A DNA stretch of 64,000 nucleotides, from positions 65,720,001 to 65,784,000 of the forward strand of contig NC_091997.1 of NCBI RefSeq assembly GCF_044704955.1, given 5' to 3'. This document shows, piece by piece, positions 30,401 to 58,407 of the stretch. The position numbers and the translations under genes are program-made. The DNA is from Pristiophorus japonicus. Its lineage: Eukaryota. The first letter of the stretch is position 1; the number at the start of each line of letters is the position of its first letter. The notes beneath the pieces were generated by a model that worked only from the letters and a program-made list of their open reading frames with translations, searched no databases and was not told where the DNA came from.

Positions 30401-33400
30401 CATTCTGGGCTGGGCTCCTCATCTTCACACTGGGCGTCTACATCTTGGGATTTTTCCCCAAGTAGTATTTAACTGGGGAGACAAAGTTAAAGAATGCAGG
30501 GTCATTGCCCCGCAAACCCGAAGGGTAAACGATGTTACCAGTTGGATTCCGTCATGCTGTTTTATATTCAACTTGTACCATGCAATCTAACTTGAAATGT
30601 TAATAGTATTTGCAACACAGAAACGGGCCATTCGGCCCAACAGGTCCATCCTGGAGTTTGCACTCCACACAGGCTCTTTCCTCCCTACATCAGCATAACC
30701 TTTGATTCCTTTCTCCCTCATGTGTTTGTCTGGCTTTCCCTTAAATGACTCTACACTAGTCGCCTCAGCCACTCTTGTGTTGCCTTTCCTCAGCTGCCAT
30801 CACCGGATAAAATAAGTCCAGACGGGTCAGCGCCTGCGAGAGAGATAAGAGGGTCTCGGGACTGGGGCGAGAATCTGCACCAGGCCTGTGACTCAGAGTC
30901 TCCACCCAATCCGTAACCGCTCTCTTCACTGCCGACGCACTGCCGTGGACCTTCCCGCTTTTAGTTTAAAGTTTCCAGCGCTCGCTGTTCCCCGCCCAGT
31001 GCTATCTGTGCGATGCCCGTGCGCACCTCGTCGTCCACTTCCTCCTCCTCCTCCTCGCTGCTGTCCTCCCGATCCACATGCCACGGCTCGTCCTCGTCCT
31101 CCGACTCCGCCTCCATCACCACCTCCGGCTCGACGATCATCCGGTGGCGGGCCAACCTAGGGAAGGCCAGAGCAAACCCGTCAGTCACGTCCCCGAAGAG
31201 CAACAACCACGCTAAACATTGGACATCACTTCACAAAATATCAAGAACTTGTGTTTATGCAGTGCCTTTCAACATCCTCAGAACGTCCCAAAGTGCTTCA
31301 CAATCAATGAATTAGGTGGGGTGCAGTCACTGATGTTAAGGAGGTAAATGCAACTGCCAATTTGTACGCCCCTCAAGTAGCAATGAAATAAGAGATCAGT
31401 TAGTCCGTTTTTTGGAGATATTTGGGATAAATATCGGCCAGGAGATCTCTGCTGCTCTTCTTTGAATAGTGCCACGAGATCTTTTACATCCACTTGAGAG
31501 AGCAGACAGAAATTTGGTTTGTCGTTGCACCTGAAAGACGGCACCTCCGACAGTGCAGCACTCCCTCAGTACCATACCGAGTCAGCCGTGGGTAGCATTC
31601 TCGCATCTCCGAGTCAGAAGGCTGTGGGTTCAAGTTCCACTCCAGGGACTTGAGCACATAAATCCAGGCTGACACTCCCAGCGCAGTACTGAGGGAGCGC
31701 TGCACTTCCACAACCGGTGGGCACTGGATGGACTGGAATGCTTCATCACCACCAGAAATAGAATTTTAATTTAATTTGTTATGGTTCATTTAAACTTTTC
31801 TCGTTAATGTACAGGTTTTATTGGTTGTTCCCCTTTAACAAGGGGGCAACATGGTTGACTTTAAGTAATGAAAGAGTCAGCAGTCCCCAACTGAGGGGCA
31901 GTGGAACCACTAATCAGCTCCGCCAATACCTTCAGCTGAGCCCAGGCACTTCAACTGGGACTTTCCCTGCTGTGTGGCTTGGGACCGGGCAGTATGTTTA
32001 AGCAGGGAGCTCTGTAATTTTGTAAACAGACCACAAACAATTAAAAGTAAATGCGGATCCCCCTGGCAGACCCCGGGTGCCCGAGACCCTGTGTGTCTGC
32101 CCAGAGGTCCCAGATTCTCTCACCTTTCCTCTACATCCTCGGAGAGCCGGTTCTGGAGACGCTTCAGACGAGGGTCATTCGCCAGCTCCTCCTTCACCTC
32201 GGGCTCTGCCTCCGGATCCTTCTGTTTCTTGACGAACTGGAAATCCTCGTCCTCCTCGTCCGAGGACTCCATCGGCGCATAATCGGGTCGCTTACCAGAG
32301 ACATAGCGCTTCACCTTCACCTTTTCCATCGACACCTCACCTGGGAACAGAAGGCAGCGACGTTCAGTCAAGGGCGCTTCCACAGTTACCGAAGGATCAG
32401 CAACAACTGACCGAAAGGGGCCGGAGTTCCAGGGCTCTCATCCCAGCTACATTGCGGCTGCGCTGAGAGAGAGATTGAAATCACCATGGACGAGGAGCCA
32501 CTCAGTGCAGTGAAGAGCAGGAGGCTATCCCTGGAAGAACGTTGGGATGGGGATGGGTGTGGTCAACAATGAGAATTTTAAAGGAGATGCACAAGGGCTG
32601 AAACAGCTGAGGGGCTCGAAAGAGAGGGTCAAAGGAGTAGAGAGACCAAGGTGTGATTTTGTGATTATTATAGAACAGTCATAGATATTTACAGCACAGA
32701 AGGAGGCCATTTGACCCGTTGTGTCCATCCCGGCCGACAAAGAACTATCCAGCCTAATCCCACTCTCCAGCTCTTGGTCCGTAGCCCTGTAGGTTGCAAC
32801 ACTTCAGGTGCACATCAAAGTGCTTTTTAAATGCGATGAGGGTTTCTGCCTTTACCACCCTTTCAGGCAGTGAGTTCCAGACCCCCACCGCCCTCTGGGT
32901 GAAAACAGTTCTCCTCAACTCCCCTCTAAACCTTCTACCAATTACTTTAAATCTATGCCCCCTGGTTATTGACCTCCCTGCTAAGGTACACAGTCCCCAC
33001 AGCAGTTTGGGTGAGCCAGGTGATGGAAAGTATAGACAGGTGGGAAGGCTGCAGTAAGGGGCAACTTCCAGTCAAAGCCAGATATCCATGCAATCTTCCA
33101 CAGCAACGACATGAATGCCAAGGGCAGAGTTTGTGACTGAGCGAACATTCTGGAGGAATATACGCAGAGGGATGGCGTTCGCTGGTCTGTTGTGGACAGG
33201 TTGCGGTAAGCAGGATTAATCGTCAGCCAGCATGCTGGGCAGGACGGTCGGAGAGAGGAGGATGGGGCAGATGGGGTTGTTTCATGCAAGAATTTATAAT
33301 GGGGAACAAAGAAATGGCAGACCAATTGAACAAATACTTTGGTTCTGTCTTCACGAAGACAGACACAAATAACCTTCCGAAAGTACTAGGGAACCAAGGG

Positions 33401-37274: not shown

Positions 37275-38676
37275 CACCAGTGAGAGTAAGTGACTGTGGA
37301 ATCCGTACCCCAGTGAGAGTCAGTGCCTGTGAAACACGTCACTCAGTGAGAGTCAGTGTGTGTGGGACCCGTACACCATTGAGAGTCAGTGTGTGTAGGA
37401 CCCGTACCCCAGTGAGAGTCAGTGTGTGTAGGACCTGTACCCCAGTGAGAGTCAGTAACTGTGCGACCCATACCCCAGTGAGAGTCACTATCTGTGGGAC
37501 CCGTATCCCAGTGAGAGTCAGTGTGTGTGGGACCCGTACCCCAGGTGAGTCAGTGTGTGTGGGACCTGTACCCAAGTGAGAGTCAGTGTGTGTGGGACCC
37601 GTACCCCAGTGAGAGTCATTGTCTGTGGAACCCGTACCCCAGTGAGAGTCTGTGTGTGTGGAATCCATACCCCAGTGAGAGTCAGTGTGTATGGGACCTG
37701 TACCCCAGTGAGAGTCAGTGTGTGTGGGACCCGTACCGCAGTGAGAGTCAGTGTGTGTGGGACCCGTACCCCAATGAGAGTCAGTGTGTGTAGGACCCGT
37801 ACCCCAGTGAGAGTCAGTGTTCGTAGGACCTGTACCCCAGTGAGAGTCAGTAACTGTGGGACCCATACCCCAGTGAGAGTCAGTGTGTGTAGGACCTGTA
37901 CCCCAGTGAGAGTCAGTAACTGTGGGACCCATAACCCAGTGAGAGTCACTGTCTGTGGGACCCGTATCCCAGTGAGAGTCAATGTGTGTGGGACACATAC
38001 CACAGTGAGAGTCAGTGTGTGTGGGACCCATACCCCATTGAGAGTCAGTGTGTGTGGGACCCGTACCCCAGTGAGAGTCAATGTGTGTGGGACCCGTACC
38101 CCAGTGAGAGTCAGTGTGTGTGGGACCCGTACCTCAGTGAGAGTCAGTGTGTGTGGAACTGTACCCCAGTGAGAGTCAGTGTGTGTGGGACCCGTACCCC
38201 AGTGAGAGTCAGTGTTTGTGGGACCCGTACCCCAGTGAGAGTCAGTGTGTGTGGAACTGTACCCCAATGAGAGTCAGTGTGCGTGGGACCAGTACCCCAG
38301 TGAGAGTCAGTGTGTGTGGGACTATACCCCAGTGAGAGTCAGTGTGTGTGGGATCCGTACCCCAGTGAGAGTCAGTGTGTGTGGGACCAGTACCCCAGTG
38401 AGAGTCAGTGTGTGTGGGACCTGTACCCCAGTGAGAGTCAGTGTGTGTGGGACCCGTACCCCATTGAGAGTCAGTGTGTGTGGGACCCGTACCCCAGTGA
38501 GAATCAATGTGTGTGGGACCAATACCCCAGTGAGAGTCAGTGTGTGTGGGACCCGTATCCCATTGAGAGTCAGTGTGTGTGGGACCCGTACCCCAGTGAG
38601 AGTCAGTGTGTGTGTGACCCGTACCCCAGTAAGAATCAATGTGTGTGGGACCCGTACCCCAGTGAGAGTCAGTGTC
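37275..38676. repeat. 33-bp minisatellite B, block 1 (CCCCAGTGAGAGTCAGTGTGTGTGGGACCCGTA)
   Basis: About 42 tandem units. Confidence 0.96.
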
Positions 38677-39624
38677 TGAGGCTCTATATAAATACAAGTT
38701 GTTGTTGTTGTTGGTGGTGGTGGAAGCAGATTCAACAGGAACTTTCAAAAGATAATTGGACATGTACTTGCAGAGGACTAATTTGCAAGACTATGGGCAA
38801 ATAGCTGAGAAGTCGGCACAAAGAGCTGGAACCACGGTGCATGTCGGGCAGAGAGGCCTCCTTCTCTGTTTTCATGTCAGCTGTGGCTCAGTTGATAAAC
38901 CGTGCCCCAGAGACGAGCACAAAAATCCAGGCTGACATGCCAGTACATTGCAGGACTGAGTGGGTATTGCACTGTCGAAGATGCTGGCATTCAGGTGAGA
39001 TGTTAAACCGAGATCCCTCTGCCTATAAAGACACCATGACGCAATTTTGAAGAAGAGCAGGGGAGCTATCCCCGTAGTCCTCAAGCCAATATTTATCCCT
39101 TAATCAACATCACAAAAACAGATTGTCTGGTCATTGCTATTTGTGGGAGCTTACAGTGCGCAAATTGATTGCTGTGCCTCCAACAATACAATAGTGAATG
39201 CACTTTAAAATTAGTTGTAAAGCGATTTGGAATGTTGTTACTTTTGTTGATGAGGAGCGTTGGTGCTGATTTTAAAAATTATTTATTGAGAAATTGGGGT
39301 GACAGATGCAGGACACCTCCAAGGATAGGAGGAATAGGACAGAAGGTGAGATAAGACAAGATTGGGACCCTGACACTCCATCTGGGGGAGCTCCATCACC
39401 ATGTAATACATAGCAACTCACAGTAGGTGGGGCTAGCACATTACTATGTTAAAATATAATATCAAAGATTGAAGGATGATATATCCTGGGCATTGAAGAC
39501 CTGTAGGATTTTGTCAGTATGCTATGAAATAAAGACTGCCCCATTTGTGGTTGGGAGAACTCTACAGCTAGTTTATTTGCAACAAAAGACTAGGTTTGTT
39601 GTGCTTTAAATCTGCAAACAGGCA

Positions 39625-42600
39625 CCTGTACCCCAGTGAAAGTCAGTGTGTGTGGGACCCGTACCCCAGTGTGTGTGGGACCCATACCCCAGTGAGAGTC
39701 AGTGTGTGTGGGACTGTACCCCAGTGAGAGTCAATGTCTGTGGAACCCGTACCCCAGTGAGAGTCAGTGTGTGTGGGACCCGTACCCCAGTGAGAGTCAG
39801 TGTGTGTGAGACCTGTACCCCAGTGAGAATCAGTGTGTGTGGGACCTGTACCCCAGTGAGAGTCAGTGTGTGTGGGACCCGTACCCCAGTGAGAGTCAGT
39901 GTCCGTGGAACCTGTACCTAGTGAGAGTCAGTGTGTGTTGGACCTGAAGCCCAGTGAGAGTCAATGTGTGTGGGATCGTACCCCAGTGAGAGTCAGTGTC
40001 TATGGAACCCGTACCCCAGTGATAGTCAGTGTGTGAGGGACCCGTACCCCAGTGAGAGTCAGTGTGTGTGGGACCCGTACCCCAGTGAGAGTCAGTGTGT
40101 GTGAGACCTGTACCCCAGTAAGAATCAGTGTGTGTGGGACCTGTACCCCAGTGAGAGTCAGTGTCTGTGGGAGCCGTACCCCAGTGTGTGTGGAACCCGT
40201 ACCCCAGTGATAGTCAGTGTGTGAGGGACCCGTACCCCAGTGAGAGTCAGTGTCTGTGGGATCCGTACCCCAGTGAGAGACAGTGTGTGTGGGACCCGTA
40301 CCCCAGTGAGAGTCAGTGTGTGTGGGACCTGTACCCCAGTGAGTGTCAGTGTGTGTGGGACCCGTACCCCAGTGAGAGTCAGTGTCTGTGGGACCCATAC
40401 CCCTCTAAGAGTCAGTATGTGTGGAACCGTACCCCAGTGAGAGTCAGTGTGTGTGGGACCTGTACCCCAGTGAGAGTTAGTGTCTGTTGGACCTGTACCC
40501 CAGTGAGAGTCAGTGTGTGTGGGACCCGTACCCCAGTGAGAGTCAATGTCTGTGGGACCTGTACCCCAGTGAGTGTCAGTGTGTGTGGGACCCGTACCCC
40601 AGTGAGAGTCAGTGTCTGTGGGACCCATACCCCTCTAAGAGTCAGTATGTGTGGAACCGTACCCCAGTGAGAGTCAGTGTGTGTGGGACCTGTACCCCAG
40701 TGAGAGTTAGTGTCTGTCGGACCTGTACCCCAGTGAGAGTCAGTGAGTGTGTGAGAACCCGTACCCCAGTGAGAGTCAGTGTCTGTGGAACCCGTACACC
40801 GGTGAGAGTCAGTATGTATGGTATCAGTACCCCATTGAGAATCAATGTCTGTGGGACCCATACCCCAGTGTGTGTGGGACCCATACCCCAGTGAGAGTCA
40901 GTGTGTGTGGGACTGTACCCCAGTGAGAGTCAATGTCTGTGGGACCCGTACCCCAGTGAGAATCAGTGTGTGTGGGACCCGTACCCCAGTGAGAGTCAGT
41001 GTGTGTGGGACCCGTACCCCAGTGAGAGTCAGTGTGTGTGGGACCCATACCCCAGTGAGAGTCAGTGTCCGTGGAACCTGTACCTAGTGAGAGTCAGTGT
41101 GTGTTGGACCTGAACCCCAGTGAGAGTCAATGTGTGTGGGATCGTACCCCAGTGAGAGTCAGTGTCTATGGAACCCGTACCCCAGTGATAGTCAGTGTGT
41201 GAGAACCCGTACCCCAGTGAGAGTCAGTGTCTGTGGAACCCATACACCAGTGAGAGTCAGTATGTATGGTATCAGTACCCCAGTGAGAATCAGTGTATGT
41301 GGAACTGTACCCCAGTGAGAGTCAATGTCTGTCGGATCTGTGTCACAGTGAGAGTCAGTGTGTGTGGAACCCATATTCCAGTGAGAGTCGGTGTGTGTGA
41401 AGCCCATACCCCAGTGAGTGTCAGTGTCTGTGGGACCCGTACCCCAGTGAGAGACAGTGTGTGTGGGATCCGTACCCCAGTGAGAGTCAGTGTGTGTGGG
41501 ACCCGTACCCCAGTGTGTGTGGGACCCATACCCCAGTGAGAGTCAGTGTGTGTGGGACTGTACCCCAGTGAGAGTCAATGTCTGTGGAACCCGTACCCTA
41601 GTGAGAGTCAGTGTGTGTGGGACCCGTACCCCAGTGAGAGTCAGTGTGTGTGAGACCTGTACCCCAGTGAGAATCAGTGTGTGTGGGACCTGTACCCCAG
41701 TGAGAGTCAGTGTGTGTGGGACCCGTACCCCAGTGAGAGTCAGTGTCCGTGGAACCTGTACCGAGTGAGAGTCAGTGTGTGTTGGACCTGAAGCCCAGTG
41801 AGAGTCAATGTGTGTGGGATCGTACCCCAGTGAGAGTCAGTGTCTATGGAACCCGTACCCCAGTGATAGTCAGTGTGTGAGGGACCCGTACCCCAGTGAG
41901 AGTCAGTGTGTGTGGGACCCGTACCCCAGTGAGAGTCAGTGTGTGTGAGACCTGTACCCCAGTAAGAATCAGTGTGTGTGGGACCTGTACCCCAGTGAGA
42001 GTCAGTGTCTGTGGGAGCCGTACCCCAGTGTGTGTGGAACCCGTACCCCAGTGATAGTCAGTGTGTGAGGGACCCGTACCCCAGTGAGAGTCAGTGTCTG
42101 TGGGACCCGTACCCCAGTGAGAGACAGTGTGTGTGGGACCCGTACCCCAGTGAGAGTCAGTGTGTGTGGGACCTGTACCCCAGTGAGTGTCAGTGTGTGT
42201 GGGACCCGTACCCCAGTGAGAGTCAGTGTCTGTGGGACCCATACCCCTCTAAGAGTCAGTATGTGTGGAACCGTACCCCAGTGAGAGTTAGTGTCTGTCG
42301 GACCTGTACCCCAGTGAGAGTCAGTGAGTGTGTGAGAACCCGTACCCCAGTGAGAGTCAGTGTCTGTGGAACCCGTACACCGGTGAGAGTCAGTATGTAT
42401 GGTATCAGTACCCCAGTGAGAATCAGTGTCTGTGGGACCCGTACCCCAGTGTGTGTGGGACCCATACCCCAGTGAGAGTCAGTGTGTGTGGGACTGTATC
42501 CCAGTGAGAGTCAATGTCTGTGGGACCCATACCCCAGTGAGAATCAGTGTGTGTGGGACCTGTACCCCAGTGAGAGTCAGTGTATGTGGGACCCGTACCC

Positions 42601-45600
42601 CAGTGAGAGTCAGTGTGTGTGGGACCCATACCCCAGTGAGAGTCAGTGTCCGTGGAACCTGTACCTAGTGAGAGTCAGTGTGTGTTGGACCTGAACCCCA
42701 GTGAGAGTCAATGTGTGTGGGATCGTACCCCAGTGAGAGTCAGTGTCTATGGAACCCGTACCCCAGTGATAGTCAGTGTGTGAGAACCCGTACCCCAGTG
42801 AGAGTCAGTGTCTGTGGAACCCGTACACCAGTGAGAGTCAGTATGTATGGTATCAGTACCCCAGTGAGAATCAGTGTATGTGGAACTGTACCCCAGTGAG
42901 AGTCAATGTCTGTCGGATCTGTGTCACAGTGAGAGTCAGTGTGTGTGGAACCCATACTCCAGTGAGAGTCGGTGTGTGTGAAGCCCATACCCCAGTGAGT
43001 GTCAGTGTCTGTGGGACCCGTACCCCAGTGAGAGACAGTGTGAGTGGGATCCGTACCCCAGTGAGAGTCAGTGTGTGTGGGACCCGTACCCCAGTGTGTG
43101 TGGGACCCATACCCCAGTGAGAGTCAGTGTGTGTGGGACTGTACCCCAGTGAGAGTCAATGTCTGTGGAACCCGTACCCCAGTGAGAGTCAGTGTGTGTG
43201 GGACCCGTACCCCAGTGAGAGTCAGTGTGTGTGAGACCTGTACCCCAGTGAGAATCAGTGTGTGTGGGACCTGTACCCCAGTGAGAGTCAGTGTGTGTGG
43301 GACCCGTACCCCAGTGAGAGTCAGTGTCCGTGGAACCTGTACCGAGTGAGAGTCAGTGTGTGTTGGACCTGAACCCCAGTGAGATTCAATGTGTGTGGGA
43401 TCGTACCCCAGTGAGAGTCAGTGTCTATGGAACCCGTACCCCAGTGATAGTCAGTGTGTGAGGGACCCGTACCCCAGTGAGAGTCAGTGTGTGTGGGACC
43501 TGTACCCCAGTGAGATTCAGTGTGTGTGAGACCTGTACCCCAGTGAGAATCAGTGTGTGTGGGACCTGTACCCCAGTGAGAGTCAGTGTCTGTGGGAGCC
43601 GTACCCCAGTGTGTGTGGAACCCGTACCCCAGTGATAGTCAGTGTGTGAGGGACCCGTACCCCAGTGAGAGTCAGTGTCTGTGGGACCCGTACCCCAGTG
43701 AGAGACAGTGTGTGTGGGACCCGTACCCCAGTGAGAGTCAATGTCTGTGGGACCTGTACCCCAGTGAGTGTCAGTGTGTGTGGGACCCGTACCCCAGTGA
43801 GAGTCAGTGTCTGTGGGACCCATACCCCTCTAAGAGTCAGTATGTGTGGGACCTGTACCCCAGTGAGAGTTAGTGTCTGTCGGACCTGTACCCCAGTGAG
43901 AGTCAGTGAGTGTGTGAGAACCCGTACCCCAGTGAGAGTCAGTGTCTGTGGAACCCGTACACCGGTGAGAGTCAGTATGTATGGTATCAGTACCCCAGTG
44001 AGAATCAGTGTCTGTGGGACCCGTACCCCAGTGTGTGTGGGACCCATACCCCAGTGAGAGTCAGTGTGTGTGGGTCGGTACCCCAGTGAGAGTCAATGTC
44101 TGTGGGACCCGTACCCCAGTGAGAATCAGTGTGTGTGGGACCTGTACCCCAGTGAGAGTCAGTGTGTGTGGGACCCGTACCCCAGTGAGAGTCAGTGTGT
44201 GTGGGACCCATACCCCAGTGAGAGTCAGTGTCCGTGGAACCTGTACCTAGTGAGAGTCAGTGTATGTTGGACCTGAACCCCAGTGAGAGTCAATGTGTGT
44301 GGGATCGTACCCCAGTGAGAGTCAGTGTCTATGGAACCCGTACCCCAGTGATAGTCAGTGTGTGAGGGACCCGTACCCTAGTGAGAGTCAGTGTCTGTGG
44401 GACCCATACCCCTCTAAGAGTCAGTATGTGTGGAACCGTACCCCAGTGAGAGTCAGTGTCTGTTGGACCCCTGCCATAGTGAGAGTCAGTGTGTGTGGGT
44501 ACCCCAGTGAGAGTCAGTGTGTGTGTGACCTATACCTCAGTGCGAGTCAGTGTCCATGGAACCTGTACCCAAGTGAGAGTGAGTGTGTGTGGGACCTGTA
44601 TCCCAGTGAGAGTCAGAGGGACCTGTACCCCAGTGAGAGTCATTGTGTGTGGGACCCGTACCCCAGTGAGAGTCAGTGTGTGAGGGACCTGTACCCCAGT
44701 GAGAGTCAGTGTGTGTGGGACCCATACCCCAGTGAGAGTCAGTGTCTGTGGAACCATACCCCAGTGAGAGTCAGTGTGTGTGGGACCTGTACCCCAGTGG
44801 GAGTCAATGTCTGTGGGACCCATACCCCAGTGAGAATCAGTGTGTGTGGGACCTGTACCCCAGTGAGAGTCAGTGTGTGTGGGACCCGTACCCCAGTGAG
44901 AGTCAGTGTGTGTGGGACCCATACCCCAGTGAGAGTCAGTGTCCGTGGAACCTGTACCTAGTGAGAGTCAGTGTGTGTTGGACCTGAACCCCAGTGAGAG
45001 TCAATGTGTGTGGGATCGTACCCCAGTGAGAGTCAGTGTCTATGGAACCCGTACCCCAGTGATAGTCAGTGTGTGAGAACCCGTACCCCAGTGAGAGTCA
45101 GTGTCTGTGGAACCCATACACCAGTGAGAGTCAGTATGTATGGTATCAGTACCCCAGTGAGAATCAGTGTATGTGGAACTGTACCCCAGTGAGAGTCAAT
45201 GTCTGTCGGATCTGTGTCACAGTGAGAGTCAGTGTGTGTGGAACCCATACTCCAGTGAGAGTCGGTGTGTGTGAAGCCCATACCCCAGTGAGTGTCAGTG
45301 TCTGTGGGACCCGTACCCCAGTGAGAGACAGTGTGTGTGGGATCCGTACCCCAGTGAGAGTCAGTGTGTGTGGGACCCGTACCCCAGTGTGTGTGGGACC
45401 CATACCCCAGTGAGAGTCAGTGTGTGTGGGACTGTACCCCAGTGAGAGTCAATGTCTGTGGAACCCGTACCCCAGTGAGAGTCAGTGTGTGTGGGACCCG
45501 TACCCCAGTGAGAGTCAGTGTGTGTGAGACCTGTACCCCAGTGAGAATCAGTGTGTGTGGGACCTGTACCCCAGTGAGAGTCAGTGTGTGTGGGACCCGT

Positions 45601-47506
45601 ACCCCAGTGAGAGTCAGTGTCCGTGGAACCTGTACCGAGTGAGAGTCAGTGTGTGTTGGACCTGAACCCCAGTGAGAGTCAATGTGTGTGGGATCGTACC
45701 CCAGTGAGAGTCAGTGTCTATGGAACCCGTACCCCAGTGATAGTCAGTGTGTGAGGGACCCGTACCCCAGTGAGAGTCAGTGTGTGTGGGACCCGTGCCC
45801 CAGTGAGATTCAGTGTGTGTGAGACCTGTACCCCAGTGAGAATCAGTGTGTGTGGGACCTGTACCCCAGTGAGAGTCAGTGTCTGTGGGAGCTGTACCCC
45901 AGTGTGTGTGGAACCCGTACCCCAGTGATAGTCAGTGTGTGAGGGACCCGTACCCCAGTGAGAGTCAGTGTCTGTGGGACCCGTACCCCAGTGAGAGACA
46001 GTGTGTGTGGGACCCGTACCCCAGTGAGAGTCAATGTCTGTGGGACCTGTACCCCAGTGAGTGTCAGTGTGTGTGGGACCCGTACCCCAGTGAGAGTCAG
46101 TGTCTGTGGGACCCATACCCCTCTAAGAGTCAGTATGTGTGGAACCGTACCCCAGTGAGAGTCAGTGTGTGTGGGACCTGTACCCCAGTGAGAGTTAGTG
46201 TCTGTCGGACCTGTACCCCAGTGAGAGTCAGTGAGTGTGTGAGAACCCGTACCCCAGTGAGAGTCAGTGTCTGTGGAACCCGTACACCGGTGAGAGTCAG
46301 TATGTATGGTATCAGTACCCCAGTGAGAATCAGTGTCTGTGGGACCCGTACCCCAGTGTGTGTGGGACCCATACCCCAGTGAGAGTCAGTGTGTGTGGGT
46401 CGGTACCCCAGTGAGAGTCAATGTCTGTGGGACCCGTACCCCAGTGAGAATCAGTGTGTGTGGGACCTGTACCCCAGTGAGAGTCAGTGTGTGTGGGACC
46501 CGTACCCCAGTGAGAGTCAGTGTGTGTGGGACCCATACCCCAGTGAGAGTCAGTGTCCGTGGAACCTGTACCTAGTGAGAGTCAGTGTGTGTTGGACCTG
46601 AACCCCAGTGAGAGTCAATGTGTGTGGGATCGTACCCCAGTGAGAGTCAGTGTCTATGGAACCCGTACCCCAGTGATAGTCAGTGTGTGAGGGACCCGTA
46701 CCCTAGTGAGAGTCAGTGTCTGTGGGACCCATACCCCTCTAAGAGTCAGTATGTGTGGAACCGTACCCCAGTGAGAGTCAGTGTCTGTTGGACCCCTGCC
46801 ATAGTGAGAGTCAGTGTGTGTGGGTACCCCAGTGAGAGTCAGTGTGTGTGTGACCTATACCTCAGTGCGAGTCAGTGTCCATGGAACCTGTACCCAAGTG
46901 AGAGTGAGTGTGTGTGGGACCTGTATGCCAGTGAGAGTCAGAGGGACCTGTACCCCAGTGAGAGTCATTGTGTGTGGGACCCGTACCCCAGTGAGAGTCA
47001 GTGTGTGAGGGACCTGTACCCCAGTGAGAGTCAGTGTGTGTGGGACCCATACCCCAGTGAGAGTCAGTGTCTGTGGAACCCATACCCCAGTGAGAGTCAG
47101 TGTGTGTGGGATCTTTACCCCAGTGAGAGTCAGTGTCTGTGGAACCTGTACCCCAGTGGGAGTCAGTGTGTATGGGACCCGTAACCCAGTGAGAGTCAGT
47201 GTCTGTGGAACTGCACCCCAGTGAGAGTCAGTGTCTGTTGGACCCCTGCCATAGTGAGAGTCAGTGTGTGTGGGTACCCCAGTGAGAGTCAGTGTGTGTG
47301 TGACCTATACCTCAGTGCGAGTCAGTGTCCATGGAACCTGTACCCAAGTGAGAGTGAGTGTGTGAGGGACCCGTACCCCAGTGAGTCAGTGTGTGTGGGA
47401 CCCGTACCCCAGTGAGAGTCAGGGTGTGTGGGACCCGTACCCCAGTGAGAGTCAGTGTGTGTGGGACCTGTACCCCAGTGATGTGACAGTGTCTTTGGAA
47501 CCTGTA
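39625..47506. repeat. 33-bp minisatellite B, block 2, with higher-order repeat structure
   Basis: Roughly 240 units; diagnostic variant units recur at offsets of 1581, 1844, 2293 and 2325 bp. Confidence 0.96.
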
Positions 47507-47829: not shown

Positions 47830-48295
47830 AGAGAGAGTGCAGAAAAGTCCCAGGTATGAGGGACTTCAGTGACGTGGATAGATTGGAGAAGTTGGGGTTG
47901 TTCTCCTTAGAACAGAGAAGGTTGAGAGGAGATTTGATAGAGGTGTTCAAAATCATGAGGGGATCTGGACAGAGAAACTGTTCCCATTGGCGGAAGGGTC
48001 AAGAACCAGAGGACACAGATTTAAGATGATTGGTGAAAGAAACAAAGGCGACATAAGAAAAATATTTTTTACGCAGTGAGTGGTTAGGATCTGGAATGCA
48101 CGGCCCGAAAGGGTAGTGGAGGCAGACTCAGTGAAGGCTTTCAAAGAGGAATTGGAAAAGTGCCTGAAAGAAAAAAATTGCAGGGCTACGGGAAAAGGTC
48201 AGGGGAGTGGGACCGGCTGAGGTGCTCTTACAAAGAGTCGGCACGGGCTCGACGGGCCGAATAGCCTCCTTCCGTGCTGTAACTATTCGATGATT
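47830..48295 (+). mobile_element. CR1 3' fragment
   Basis: [27 protein letters not shown]...RTRGHRFK and a CR1 tail. Confidence 0.8.
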
Positions 48296-48927
48296 TTATC
48301 TCCTCAACCATCGCGAATGACTAGGACAGCAACAACATCACTTCCAGGTTGGCCTCCAAGTCACGGCCCACCGAAGGTGGTGGGTCTTCTCTTCGTGGTG
48401 ACGGTGCTACACAATGCAGTTGGAGCAGGAAATTGACTCAGTGACATTGACGGAATGGCAATATATGTCCAAGTCTGGATGGTGTGTGACTTGATGGGGA
48501 ACCTGTAGTTGATTTTAAAATTCTCTCATCCTTGTGTTCAAATCCCTATGTCTGTAACCTCCCCCAGTGCTATAATCTTCTGAGAACTCTCTGTTCATCC
48601 AGTTCTGGCCTCTTGCACATCCCCCACTCCCTTCACTCCACCATTGGCAACCATGTCTTCAACTGCATTAACTCCTAAACCCTACCTTTTCTGACCAAGC
48701 TTTTAGGCACCCATCCTAATACCACCATCTTTGGCTCAGTGTCAATTTTTATCTGATTACACTCTTGTGAAGCACCTTGGAACATTTTACTTAGCCGTGG
48801 CTCAGTGGGTAGCACTCTCTCACCTCTGAGTCAGAAGGTTGTGGGTTCAAGCCCCACAAAAAATATCTAGGCCGACAGTCCAGTGCAGTGCTGCACTGTC
48901 GGAGGTGGCGTCTTTCGGGTGTGACGT

Positions 48928-49793
48928 TGTAAGGGGGAAAAAAGTACACTTGAGTAAGAAGGTTAAAGGGAATTAGGAGGTTCTGAGGAATAGGGAGTTC
49001 CTCTGTCTTACGGTATGGATTATTGCCTATTGTATGTAACACTTGCTTATGTCGGTAAAGCACACTTATAACGAATTAAGCCTGATGGTTAATTCATCCT
49101 TAACCTTAGTAACACATAACAAAGACAGTCAAGGTCAGTAGTTACAATAATAACATTTTGGCTAGAAATATCTGAGCAAGAGATAAGAAAGTTAGTATTT
49201 TGGAACAGAGCTACTAAGGGACTAAGGCAAAGATTACATCACTGAACAACATGATTAACATTGCATGTACCACTCAGAGCCAGTCTGATCAGAGACGACA
49301 AATCAATGTAACTTCGCTGATAGCAGTAGACCTGTTATGTCTTGTATAAAGAGTCAGACAAGATACTGCAAGCTCAAAGTAAGTGTGACCATAGTCCTTT
49401 ATTACAGATCTCAGAGTGCCTCTCCAGCCTGTGAGGCCTCCTTATATACAGGTGCTCCCAAGGGATTGTGGGATCCCTTGGGACTCCAGGGGTTAAGCCC
49501 TTTGGTGGTTAGACATGGTAATTACAGGTTTATATACATAACAAGACCTATTGATGATTTTGTAGGAGGGTAGCTCCCCTCAAAAACCTGTATAATTGTA
49601 CTTGAACCCTCTTGTACTCTGAGAGTTCACGTTTGAATTTCTCCCTTGCATGTGTTCGTATAATAAAGCCGGTTGAACCGAAGGTTTCGTTTGTTTGATT
49701 CCGTGGTCGTTATACGGAGGGCAAGGGCAGGTGTCGACTTCTTATATCAGGGAGTCCGCCTCGAAGAAGAGAAGTCTTTCTATTACCCCAACA
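48928..49793 (+). mobile_element. Solo LTR (about 650 bp without the nested insert)
   Basis: TGTAAGGGG...CCCCAACA termini; 5-bp TSD GACGT; AATAAA near 49662. Confidence 0.8.
49333..49543 (-). mobile_element. Short solo LTR nested in the previous LTR; related to 10327-10539
   Basis: TGTTATGT...ACATAACA inverted termini; 5-bp TSD AGACC. Confidence 0.82.
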
Positions 49794-50389
49794 GACGTTA
49801 AACCAAGGTCCCATCTGCCCTCTCAAGTGGACATAAAAGATTCCATGGCATTATTTCCAAGAAGAACAGAAGAGTTATCTTCAGTGTTCTGGCCAATATT
49901 TATCCTTGAATCAGCATAACAAAAAAAAACAGATTATCTGGTTATTGTCACATTGCTGTGTGTGGGAGCTTGATGTACACAAATTAACTGCCGCATTTCC
50001 TTCATTGCAACAGTGACTACACTCCAAAAAGTACTTCATTGGCTGTAAAGCACTTTGAGACATCTGGTGGTCGTGAAAGGCACTATATAAATCCAAGTCT
50101 CTCTTTCTTTCTTAAAGATGCTATATAAATGCAAGTTGTTTTTGTTGATTTGGTAGCCGAATCCATGTGTGCTGTCTGTAACTGTAGTTCTGTGAGTCAG
50201 TGTGGAGGCGAAATGGAATAGGATACAGGGGATAAAGAAAACCAGGATGTAATTCAGGTCCAGTTTCATGTTGTATCCTCACTGCTTGGATTTTATATAA
50301 TTAGTTGCAGTCCAGCTGTAGATGAGAGAGGAATCTGGGAGTGGCCACCTGGATCTGAAGCTGGATCGTTCTCAAACAAGATTGGACAC

Positions 50390-52376
50390 TGAATGTATGC
50401 ACCTGTGAGTGTGCTCACTGTTTGTTGTAGAGCTGTGGGGCACTTGTAAATTATAAGATTTTAATGCCCAAAAAAAAATCACAAAAAAAACCCACAAAAA
50501 AAAAACAAAACCCCCCAAAAAATAAAAAAAATATGAAAAAAGAGGGCAGTTAAAAGTATCTGGAGTGTTCCCCAGATCGGGGGGCACTCGATTTAATGTT
50601 TATTTTGCCTCCCCCCCAAAAGAGTTGTGGAGCTGTTGCGAGAGGTGGGCGCCGGAGGGACTGGAGTGCATCATCACCCCCGGCAACCAAATTTTAATTT
50701 GACTTGATATGTTTTAAAGTTTAATTTGTTTTAATTGCCAGGCTTTAGTGTCCCCCCTCCCCTTTTATAGGGGGTACTTGTAAATTATAAGATTTTAATG
50801 CCCCAAAAAAATCACAAAAAAAAAACACCACAAAAAAAGAGGGCAGTTAAAAGTGTCTGGAGTGTTCCCCAGATCGGGGGGCACTCGATTTAATGTTTAT
50901 TTTGTCTCCCCAAAAGAGTTGTTGTCGAGCTGTTGAGTGTCCACTGGTACGCTCGGGACCTTCCGCGAGAGGTGGGCGCTGGAGGGACTGGAGTGCATCA
51001 TCACCCCCGGCAACCAAATTTTAATTTGATTTTATATGTTTTAAAGTTTAATTTTTTTTATTGCCGGTTTTAGTGTCCCCCACCTTTTAGCCAGGGGGCA
51101 CTTGTAAAATTTGTGTTTTTCAGTACCAAAAAAAAATCACTGAAAAAAAAACAAAAATTAACCACAAAAAAAAGGGCACTTAAAGTGTTTGGAGTGTCCC
51201 CCAGATCAGGGGGCACCTGATTTAACTGTTTAATTTTGTTGACAACAAAAAGAGTTGTAGAGCTGTTGAGTGTCCACTGGTACGCTCGGGACCTTCCGCG
51301 AGAGGTGGGCGCCGGAGGGACTGGAGTACATCATCACCCCCGGCAACCAAATTTTAATTTGATTTTATATGTTTTAAAGTTTAATTTGTTTACTGTGCCG
51401 GGTTTTAGTGTCCCCCTCCCCTTTTAGCCAGGAGGCACTTGTATAATTTGTGCTTTTAGTGCCCCCAAAAAAATCCCCCAAAAAACAAAAAAGGCACTTG
51501 AAAAGTGTTTTGTGTGTCCCCCTCTTTTAGTCAAGTGGCACTTGATTTAACGTTTATTTTTGTTCACAACGAAAAGAGTTGTCGAGCTGTTGAGTGACCA
51601 CCGGTATGCTTGCGGCCTTCTGCGAGAGGTGGGCGCTGGAGGGACTGGAATGCATCATCACCCCCAGCAACCAAATTTTAATTTGAACCACTTGTCTAAA
51701 GGTTACTTTGACTATGTTTGTCGGTTTTAATGCTCCCCCCACCCCCCCCCCCCACCTTTTAGCCAGGGATCACTTGTATAATTTTTCTTTTGGTGCCCTC
51801 AGGAAAAAAAACAACAAAACAAAAAAGAAACAAGGGGGCACCTGAAAAGGTTTAGGAGTGTGAGCCCCCCCCCCCACTTTAATCAGGGGGCACTTGATTA
51901 AAGTATACAATATACAACAAAATAGTTGTAGAACTGTTGATATGTTCGCGCCAGGGTGACCCTGGAGATGGAGTACACGGTGTCCACCGGTACGCTCGCG
52001 GCTTCCGCGAGAGGTGGGCGCCGGAGGGACTGGAGTGCATCATCACCCCCGGCAACCAAATTTGAATTTGACCGTTTAAGCTCTACAAAGTTTTATTTGT
52101 TAATTTGTCGGTTTAATAAGGGGGCACTCGGCTTAAAGTTCTATCTAAAATAGTTGTGGAGCTGTTGAATTCTAAGTGGCTTAGCCAGTCACGTGATGTT
52201 CACAAGACTCAATAAAATCCCAGCCAGTTGGCTTCAAGGGATCCACGACGAGGCAGGTGGTTGTGAGCCTGGTGGATGAACTGGTAATGTGTAGTGTGAT
52301 TGTTAAACCTTTGCTAGTTCTTAATAGCAATGTGTTGCTATGAATGCTTAAGCAAAGAACCCACAGAGCAAATACA
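50390..52376 (+). mobile_element. LTR-like repeat (50390-50436 plus 52153-52376) hosting the Tx1-like stack
   Basis: Removing the inserts joins ...CACTGTTTGTTGTAGAGCTGT to TGAATTCTAAGTGGC...CTCAATAAAA...GCAAATACA; the ends TGAATGTATGC and GCAAATACA are imperfect inverted repeats. Confidence 0.5.
50424..52168 (+). mobile_element. Six tandem 5'-truncated L1/Tx1-clade retrotransposon 3' ends separated by a repeated target motif
   Basis: Units encode (YVRARVTLEMEYT)VSTGTLxxFRERWAPEGLECIITPGNQILI*, followed by hairpins and A-rich tracts. The motif GTTGT[A/G/C]GAGCTGT(TGA) starts at 50424, 50624, 50921, 51254, 51578, 51925 and 52153. Confidence 0.72.
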
Positions 52377-52393
52377 GACACCGAGCCACATAA

Positions 52394-55300
52394 ACATAGA
52401 AATATAGAAACATAGAAAATAGGTGCAGGAGTAGGCCATTTGGCCCTTCGAGCCTGCACCACCATTCAATAAGATCATGGCTGATCATTCCCTCAGTACC
52501 CCTTTTCTGCTTTCTCTCCATACCTCTTGATCCCTTTAGCCGTAAGGGCCATATCTAACTCCCTCTTGAATATATCCAATGAGCTGGCATCAATAACTCT
52601 CTGCAGCAGGGAATTCCACTTGTTAATAACTCTCTGAGTGAAGATGTTTCGCCTCATCTCAGTCCTAAATGGCCTGCCCCTTATCCTAAGACTGTGCTCC
52701 CTGGTTCTGGCCTTCCTCAATATCTAATCCGTCCAGTCCCGTCAGAATCTTATACGTTTTTATGAGATCCCCTCTCATCCTTCTAAACTCCAGTGTATAA
52801 AGGCCCAGTTGATCCAGTCTCTCTTCATATGTCAGTCCAGCCATCCCAGGAATCAGTCTGGTGAACCTTCGTTGCACTCCCTTAATAGCAAGAACGTCCT
52901 TCCTCAGATTAGGAGACCAAAACTGAACACAGTATTCCAGGTGAGGCCTCACCAAGGCCCTGTACAACTACAGTAAGACTCTCTGCTCCTATACTCAAAT
53001 CCCCTAGCTATGAAGGCCAACATACCATTTGCCTTCTTCACTGCCTGCTGTACCTGCATGCCAACTTTCAATGACTGATGAACCATGACACCCAGGTCTC
53101 GTTGCACCTCCCCTTTTCCTAACCTGCCGTCATTCAGATAATATTCTGCCTTCGTGTTTTTGCCCCCAAAGTGGATAACCTCACATTTATCCACATTATA
53201 CTGCATCTGCCATCAGTTGCCCACTCATCTAACCTGTCCAAGTAACCCTGCAGCCTCTCAGCGTCCTCCTCACAGCTCATGCTGCCACCCAGCTTAGTGT
53301 CATCTGCAAACTTGAAGATATTACACTCAATTCCTTCATCTAAATCATTAATGTATATTGTAAAGAGCTGGGGTCCCAGCACTGAGCCCTGCGGCACCCC
53401 ACTAGTCACTGCCTGCCATTCTGAAAAGGACCCGTTTATCCCGACTCTCTGCTTCCTGTCTGCCAAGCAGTTCTCTATCCACGTCAGTACATTACCCCCA
53501 ATACTCTGTGCTTTGATTTTGCACATCAATCTCTTGTGTGGGACCTTGTCAAAAACCTTTTGAAAGTCCAAATACACCACATCCACTGGTTCTCCCTTGT
53601 CCACTCTACTAGTTACATCCTCAAAAAATTCCAGAAGATTTGTCAAGCATGATTTCCCTTTCATAAATCCATGCTGACTTGGACCGATCCTGTCACTGCT
53701 TTCCAAATGCACTGCTATTTCATCCTTAATGATTGATTCCAACATTTTCCCCACTACTGATGTCAGGCTAACCGGTCTATAATTACCCGTTTTCTTTCTC
53801 CCTCCCTTTTTAAAAAGTGGTGTTACATTAGCTACCCTCCAATCAATAGGGACTGATCCAGAGTCGATAGACTGTTGGAAAATGATCACCAATGCATCTA
53901 CTATTTCTAGGGCCACTTCCTTAAGTACTCTGGGATGCAGACTATCAGGCCCCGGGGATTTATCGGCCTTCAATCCCATCAATTCCTCTAACACAATTTC
54001 CCACTTAATAAGGATATCCTTCCGTTCCTCCTTCTCACTAGACCCTAGTACTTCCGGAAGGTTATTTGTGTCTTCCTTCGTGAAGACAGAACGAAAGTAT
54101 TTGTTCAACTGGTCTGTTATTTCTTTGTTCCCCATTATAAATTCACCTGAATCTGACTGCAAGGGACCTACGTTTGTCTTCACGAATCTTTTTCTCCTCA
54201 CATATCTACAGAAGCTTTTGCTGTCAGTTTTTATGTTCCTGGCAACTTCCTCTCGTACTCCATTTTCCCCTCTTAATTAAACCCTTTTTCCTCCTCTGCT
54301 GAATTCTAAATTTCTCCCAGTCCTCAGGTTTGCTGCTTTTTCTGGCCAATTAATATGCCTCTTCCTTGGATTTAACACTATCTTTAATTTCCCTTGTTAG
54401 CCACGGTTGAGCCACCTTTCCCGTTTTGTTTTTACTCTGGACAGGGATGTACAATTGTTGAAGTTCATCCATGTAATCTTTAAATGTTTGCCATTGCCTA
54501 TCCACCGTCAACCCTTTAAGTATCATTTGCCAGTCTATTCTAGCCAAATCACGCCTCATACCATTGAAGTTACCTTTCCTTAAGTTCAGGACCCTAGTCT
54601 CTGAATTAACTGTGTCACTCTCCATCTTAATAAAGAATTCTACCATATTATGATCACTCTTCCCCAAGGGGCCTCGCACAACAAGATTGTTAATTAGTCC
54701 TTTCTCATTACACATCACCCAGTCTAGGATGGCCAGCTCTCTAGTTGGTTCCTCGACATATTGGTCTGGAAAACCATCCCTAATACATTCCAGGAAATCC
54801 TCCTCCACCGCATTGCTACCAGTTTGGTTAGCCCAATCAATATGTAGATTAAAGTTGCCCATGATAACTGCTGTTCCTTTATTGCACGCATCCCTAATTT
54901 TTTGTTTGATGCTGTCCCCAACATCACTACCAATGTTTGGCGGTCTGTACACAACTCCCATTAGTGTTTTCTGCCCTTTGCTATTCCGCAGCTCCACCCA
55001 TACCAATTCCACATAATCCAAGCTAATGTCCTTCCTTATTATTGCATTAATTTCCTCTTTAACCAGTAATGCCACCCCACCTCCTTTTCCTTTCTGTCTA
55101 TCCTTCTTAAATGTTGAATACCCCTGGATGTTGAGTTCCCAGCCTTGGTCACCCTGGAGCCATGTCTCCGTGATGCCAATTACATCATATCCGTTAACTG
55201 CTATCTGCACAGTTAATTCGTCCACCTTATTCCGAATACTCCTCGCATTGAGGCACAGAGCCTTCAGGCTTGTCTTTTAACACACTTTGCCCCTTTAGAA

Positions 55301-58266: not shown

Positions 58267-58407
58267 CAAAAAAAAAACCAAAAAAGAAAAACACAAAAAA
58301 AAACAAAAAAAAGGGGAAAAAAAAAAAGGGCCTTGTAAATGTCTGGAGTGTCACCCAGGTCGGGTGGCACCGTTTAATGTTTTATGTTTTGCAGGTGAAC
58401 TCAAAAA
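58267..58407 (+). mobile_element. Short Tx1-like 3' UTR insertion in the FURIN promoter
   Basis: 15-bp TSD AAAGGGGGGCGGGCA (58252-58266 and 58408-58422); body homologous to the tails at 50.5-51.5 kb; poly(A) end. Confidence 0.75.

Follow-up and report, generated by a model that had tools for sequence, protein, structure and literature searches.

The LTR and its inserts

The DNA examined in the present work is a stretch of 64,000 nucleotides from Pristiophorus japonicus, called the window in the following; the features of the locus described here all lie on its forward strand. At positions 50390–52376 there is a solo LTR that holds six 5′-truncated copies of a LINE of the Tx1L lineage, arranged nose-to-tail and on the same strand at a single 14-base site. 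An earlier reading made from the letters alone (the sequence-only reading) had claimed that a continuous LTR-like sequence is left once the inserts are removed, and this is the case. The left part (50390–50424) and the right part (52168–52376, with AATAAA at 52211) join into one element of the LTR-retrotransposon type, ca 265–275 bp long when empty, and a perfect 5-bp duplication, GACAC, bounds it at 50385–50389 and 52377–52381.

The inserts are delimited by seven copies of a short target motif, compared to 0.29 expected in shuffled sequences, and the six units are separated by 13–14-bp target duplications. The earlier claims that seven motif copies delimit six same-strand inserts and that the site is regenerated at each insertion are both borne out. 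The motif as originally defined, with copies at 50424, 50624, 50921, 51254, 51578, 51925 (one mismatch) and 52153, has to be corrected: its leading G is the final base of the element tail and its trailing A is outside the target, the duplicated sequence being 13–14 nt long and ending in ..GTTG. In the corrected form, the 5′-most copy is at 50425–50436 and the 3′-most one, with G at position 5, at 52154–52167. Between them are the copies at 50625–50638 (G at position 5), 50922–50935 (C at position 5), 51255–51268, 51579–51592 (C at position 5) and 51926–51939 (the one with the mismatch).

Unit 1 (50437–50624) consists only of Tx1 3′ UTR, of the long, AAAAGAG-tailed (younger) type, without the ORF2 end. 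The five other units carry the C-terminus of ORF2, as had been proposed, with peptides that vary slightly and also differ slightly from the one quoted in the sequence-only reading. In unit 2 (50639–50921, stop at 50702) the ORF2 end is followed by a long UTR and an extra TTG, while units 3 (50936–51254, stop at 51029), 4 (51269–51578, stop at 51362) and 5 (51593–51925, stop at 51686, AAAATAG tail) consist of the ORF2 end and UTR and have the same 5′ breakpoint. Unit 6 (51940–52153, stop at 52071) has a short UTR of the oldest type and was presumably the first to insert. The four different 5′ start points noticed previously are thus those of unit 1, unit 2, units 3–5 and unit 6.

Other parts of the window also contain repeats. 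At 58268–58406 there are ca 140 nt of young (CR1-type, see below) Tx1 3′ UTR, which match an intact copy at 96% identity; this piece lacks the target motif, has an A-run at its end and a flanking duplication of ca 17 nt, and is an atypical, L1-like insertion of the Tx1 family. An old, diverged Tx1 ORF2 end with a short UTR lies at 31705–31870 without an LTR, and a 10-kb minisatellite with a 33-bp unit in ca 314 copies occupies 37277–47481. Upstream of the array, at ca 49500–49792, the end of another LTR-like sequence can be seen by eye, with AATAAA at ca 49662 and the terminus ..CCCCAACA. An RNA gene as the target was also considered, and was rejected after an Rfam scan of 48000–55000 gave only a chance match far below threshold.

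The element, its host and its target in the genome

Full-length relatives of the six copies are ca 7.2 kb long, with an ORF1 of ca 702 aa and an ORF2 open frame of 1306 aa that contains APE endonuclease and RT domains (Pfam Exo_endo_phos and RVT_1, above cutoff). ORF2 is 49% identical to that of Xenopus Tx1L at 100% cover, and in a quick tree of 22 proteins the RT falls into a four-member clade with Tx1L (SH 100). The full-length element, whose recovery and placement had been suggested as a check, belongs to the Tx1 clade and to its Tx1L lineage; the copies of the family are 5′-truncated, with a fixed 3′ end and a TSD. The TSD of Tx1L is 23 bp, whereas that of the shark element is 13–14 bp, and the endonuclease hairpin loop of the latter is shorter. 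In Xenopus laevis, Tx1L is likewise an APE-RT element with a specific site inside another transposon, the Tx1D DNA transposon (PMC1950540, PMC4494074), while the hosts in the shark are an LTR and, later, a CR1-like LINE.

In the 5.9-Gb genome searched, the right flank of the LTR gave 3,154 first-look candidates, and a 32-nt probe from its left end gave 1,035 exact matches. Empty copies have TG..CA inverted ends and 5-bp TSDs. The TSD is kept (at least four of five bases) in 32 of the 43 LTRs with both ends available, and by the same measure in 25 of the 32 occupied LTRs with both ends available. With a probe made of the LTR end and a primer-binding-like site, 5 of 12 matches have downstream sequence in common, and downstream of single LTRs there are a gag-like remnant (Pfam Retrotrans_gag, E=0.003) and an integrase-like remnant (Pfam rve, E=1.7e-6), both below the curated cutoff. 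The host can be classed as the solo LTR of an LTR retrotransposon, possibly a Gypsy-like (Ty3/Gypsy) one, of which only decayed fragments are present here. Scoring of empty against occupied host sites had been called for, and both states are found: among the first 70 LTR left ends, classed by eye, 54 are independently occupied, 11 are empty and 5 are otherwise damaged. With a second probe, counted by hand, about half of the 100 intact 5′ motifs listed continue as LTR. Roughly half to three quarters of the sampled LTRs are occupied.

Exact junctions of element tail and motif number 10,564 genome-wide (control 0), and the same array pattern occurs at thousands of places. Together with the empty and occupied LTRs, these junctions uphold the proposal that a Tx1 family homes to a motif in an LTR family. 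Most of the samples used here were drawn from contig C1 and by exact-match patterns. For the ORF2 ends, the sample consists of the first 50 loci examined on contig C1, out of 3,980 matches (two listed matches were skipped as covered by other loci, and two pairs share arrays). By script 28 of these are on the motif, and by eye 36 are LTR-associated, 12 lie elsewhere, 1 is at a third site and 1 is undetermined. By Kojima's criterion a Tx1 family is target-specific when more than 20% of its flanks lie in one repeat; here 36 of 50 do, and other copies indeed share their flanks, which was another check proposed. The family is real, genome-wide and transposon-targeting. Its specificity is leaky, with 12 of the 50 sampled ends off target, and the overall picture of a site-homing, LTR-targeting Tx1 that stacks is largely supported, except that the specificity is not absolute.

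Among 30 off-motif insertions, a 5′ TSD copy of ca 13 nt was found in 19, and the host has the TGT core in 17 of 19 off-target cases. Position 1 of the 3′ copy is T, yet in 12 of 19 hosts it is not; the first TSD base is supplied by the element. The independent off-target insertions L246, L324 and L333 have a flank in common, and L144, L314 and L332 are likewise independent with a recurring flank, which points to secondary multicopy sites, or hot spots, in other repeat families. Ultra-short insertions, with only 11–15 nt of element tail between two full TSDs, are present at L217, L222, L273 and L286.

These data also bear on the option that an LTR carrying Tx1 pieces moves as one, without any targeting by Tx1. 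Such hitchhiking would fit the presence of Tx1 in one LTR that continues into internal sequence (L252) and the existence of segmental duplicates of single loci. However, empty LTRs are common and off-target insertions have TSDs of their own. Since occupied LTRs keep their own TSD and the breakpoints differ between loci (1.6% shared), hitchhiking can be ruled out for practical purposes, its probability being close to negligible.

Order of insertion and shared breakpoints

Each unit of the window has its best match at another locus, the best mate within the window ranking only 4th to 103rd, and the UTRs of array mates fall into different genome-wide subtypes. In 86 adjacent pairs, a GAG-tailed copy is upstream of a TAG-tailed one 18 times and the reverse order occurs 0 times, and the longer UTR is upstream by 33:12, with 21 ties. 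Long-UTR copies are placed higher on a ladder-like, midpoint-rooted tree of 83 copies, have shorter tip branches, and nearest-neighbour identity also makes them younger, if weakly (rho 0.23, p 0.03). The arrays were likely built by sequential insertion, mostly 5′ of the resident copy; the pattern at L153 requires internal insertions as well.

We now consider the 5′ ends of the units. Both starts could be mapped in 70 adjacent pairs, and in 48 of these they coincide within 4 nt (46 of them exactly; 28 of 35 loci), compared to 201 of 12,901 pairs across loci. The sharing amounts to 48 of 57 pairs when the upstream unit is at least as long as its neighbour; a longer upstream unit is found in 9 of the 70 pairs, and capture of the breakpoint is hence not obligatory. 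Shared starts are seen in units 3–5 of the window, in the off-target arrays L319, L325 and L339–342, and in the young branch (L288–289). Site specificity, TSDs, the independence of the units, the younger-upstream order and the shared breakpoints are all plain in the data.

Local tandem duplication of one insertion, by slippage or unequal crossover and followed by drift, would account for shared 5′ breakpoints, and it is also favored by the L122 pair, which are sisters on the tree, and by the third L199 pair, which shares variants throughout. For most pairs it is contradicted by the bodies of the mates, which diverge nearly as much as those of unrelated copies do, by their different UTR subtypes, and by the 18:0 polarity. 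In the window, where an origin of all six units from one local duplication had been named as a possible objection, every unit best-matches another locus. Local duplication applies to a small minority, one or two pairs, and is very improbable as the origin of the arrays.

The similarity of mates with a shared breakpoint is concentrated at their 5′ ends. Beyond the first 30 nt they differ by 9–13%, compared to 10–13% for unrelated copies, and in the 44 scorable shared pairs the frequency of shared rare variants is 4.2% in the first 30 nt, 1.2–1.5% at 30–120 nt and 0.5–0.7% beyond 240 nt (control 0.3–0.5%). The last 25 nt are identical in only 1 of 48 such pairs, and the crossover positions vary among them. 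An excess of internal deletions in the upstream units of these pairs was considered and rejected (3 vs 3 of 48). This pattern suggests that newcomers usually start where the resident starts, the new cDNA likely annealing to the 5′ end of the resident. The newcomer would inherit the breakpoint because the annealing takes place before the top-strand cut, with the duplication extending into the resident.

Another option is that the insertion is site-specific, as described above, and that the sharing of breakpoints is due to repair by the host. A unit might first be duplicated and then have its 3′ part replaced through cDNA-mediated gene conversion, or the cDNA might invade the resident copy on the sister chromatid in an SDSA-like manner. 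Host repair yields an identical chimeric product and is compatible with variable crossover positions, and recombination of L1 cDNA with resident L1 copies is a known process, which Gilbert et al. are said to have described in 2005. Under conversion after duplication, however, there is no reason to expect the younger tail invariably on the upstream side or an exact TSD between the units, while invasion of the sister chromatid would leave the same sequence signature as annealing of the cDNA. We judge host repair to be an unlikely source of the shared breakpoints, and annealing of the new cDNA to the resident remains our preferred reading.

A comparison with R1 of Drosophila is useful here. R1, an APE LINE of the R1 clade with its target in 28S rDNA and a 14-bp TSD, forms tandem arrays via insertion into the 5′ TSD (PMC2718515), and the shark arrays likewise grow at the 5′ TSD. 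In the accessible part of that work, identical junctions in tandem R1 copies are ascribed to amplification (PMC2718515), whereas the shark arrays are read here as newcomers copying the breakpoint of the resident. The order of events that breakpoint inheritance would need is found in the 4-way-junction model for R2Bm, an RLE element studied in vitro, in which second-strand cleavage takes place only after the cDNA has paired with the top strand; for APE LINEs this order is stated to be undetermined in the accessible text of the same source (PMC6895275). A search of open-access text gave no report of breakpoint inheritance. The sequence-only reading contained neither this feature nor the target switch discussed below.

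The second target and the ends of the RNA

Twenty copies were chosen because their ORF2 is intact. Of these, 19 terminate in TTTCATGCACAAGG or in a variant differing by one base, 1 is at a third site and 0 are in the LTR; two of the 19, L103 and L104, seem to represent the same locus. The TTTCATGCACAAGG site lies antisense in the RT region of a LINE, for which the nearest named proteins are LINE RTs of birds, turtles and cartilaginous fish. The LINEs of birds are CR1, and the second host is accordingly called a CR1-like LINE here. Junctions with this target number 15,664, and exact empty sites 24,152. The CR1-targeted copies are at the top of the ladder tree and have the shortest tips, with 3 label changes compared to 27.7 in shuffles, the tree being midpoint-rooted and the node uniting these copies weakly supported. 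At their 5′ head, the LTR motif is still present in degenerate form. On the basis of the position on the tree, the short tips and this relic, the switch likely went from the LTR to the CR1-like site. The users of the CR1 site are the youngest branch, with intact ORFs. A search of open-access text gave no report of a target switch within a lineage or of the targets of shark Tx1.

The hairpin loop of the endonuclease, which matters in L1-EN (PMC1950540), is unchanged between LTR-type and CR1-type copies. Elsewhere in the endonuclease, about eight positions have a residue that is near-fixed among 18 CR1-type copies and a minority variant among 17 LTR-type copies. A single diagnostic residue was sought and rejected, since each of the CR1-type residues can be found among the LTR-targeted copies as well. 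Either the enzyme or the RNA may explain the change of target.

Two further observations concern the sites used. At L105 and L151 the tail is followed by a third target, TTCTGTGGA.., and on the tree these copies are intermediate between the LTR-type group and the CR1-type one; a role of this target as a stepping stone between the LTR and CR1-like sites is possible. At G000:C1:9.71–9.77 Mb, CR1-type junctions follow each other at a distance of ca 7.2 kb eight times in succession and represent a head-to-tail array of apparently full-length copies.

Full-length LTR-targeted copies begin with the target motif (137 exact head junctions) and also carry it partly at their 3′ end. A full-length head follows 13 of 28 junctions that have an extra G in front of the motif and 1 of 100 listed normal junctions. 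Position 5 of the motif differs between the first and last copies in 12 of 44 arrays, compared to 32 of 396 for positions 6–14 (p=4.5e-4), and it tracks the UTR subtype (G in 10/43 vs 7/185) more than the host, the host letter being G in 2 of 8 hosts found. At off-target sites, position 5 is the host letter in 19 of 19 cases, and host variants at positions 2–5 and at positions 6–14 recur with similar frequency in the 3′ copy (by eye), which argues that templating by the RNA beyond position 1 is only partial. A read-through RNA, as for R1, is likely in view of these patterns. For R1, downstream target sequence in the RNA, a flexible top-strand cut and off-target sites with partial identity have been described (PMC2718515). 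Covariation of the last UTR hairpin with the target was considered as well. A stem from this hairpin reaching into the motif is found for TAG-tailed ends (z −1.05, 66/82) and CR1-type ends (z −1.9, 52/54), and is not seen for GAG-tailed LTR-type ends (z +0.38). The arms of the CR1-type hairpin pair with their own motif no better than shuffles.

We consider it probable that the six units are independently derived copies of the Tx1L lineage that arose by serial target-primed reverse transcription at a self-duplicated site, with capture of breakpoints and a later move of the target. In this mechanism, one insertion after another would take place at the 13–14-bp site that each of them duplicates. 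The APE endonuclease would nick the bottom strand just before TGT. The element RNA has the end ..AAAA(T/G)AG-T, to which target motif is probably appended by read-through, and could hence pair with the primer. With a resident downstream, the cDNA growing past the 5′ end of the resident would anneal to its uncut top strand; the duplication would then take in ca 30–120 nt of the resident, whose breakpoint would pass to the newcomer. A late branch of the lineage would finally have moved to a different 13–14-bp site, which lies antisense in a CR1-like LINE.

In a bolder version, which we find rather doubtful, the target would be found, time and again, partly via target sequence at both ends of the RNA. 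The 5′ end would be joined through annealing of the cDNA to a top strand that is still uncut, truncated residents would in this way trap and truncate newcomers, and saturation of the LTR would have driven the jump to the fresh, more abundant CR1-like site while the endonuclease stayed nearly as it was. If true, this would be an RNA-assisted, reprogrammable APE retrotransposon caught in the middle of a switch, with intact copies at hand for testing.

Transposon-targeting Tx1 families are as a class already known, including LTR targets and tandems that sandwich a TSD (PMC4494074). The crocodilian families Tx1-8_Crp, Tx1-4_AMi and Tx1-Mar, which group with Keno, prefer LTR retrotransposons or Mariner-N4, and tandem copies of SINEU-3 sandwiching a TSD have been read as sequential insertions (PMC4494074). 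The shark family resembles these in its transposon targets, LTR elements included, and in its tandems around the TSD. Unlike in the accessible passages on the crocodilian elements, breakpoint inheritance and a switch to a LINE within the lineage are described for the shark family. What goes beyond the known systems is the inheritance of breakpoints, the target switch in the youngest branch and the target motif at the element's own 5′ end.

Identical 5′ truncation in adjoining LINE copies is usually read as duplication after insertion, while here it marks separate insertions. The shared breakpoints provide genome-scale natural support for the proposed pairing of APE LINE cDNA with the top strand before second-strand cleavage. 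With more than 26,000 exact junctions, targeting of transposons by a transposon shapes a vertebrate genome. One lineage with intact ORFs uses two unrelated 13–14-bp targets; its RNA ends have changed and its endonuclease differs at about eight positions. What underlies the target specificity of Tx1/APE elements is an old question, which this lineage makes directly testable by swaps and which bears on retrotransposon-based gene insertion.
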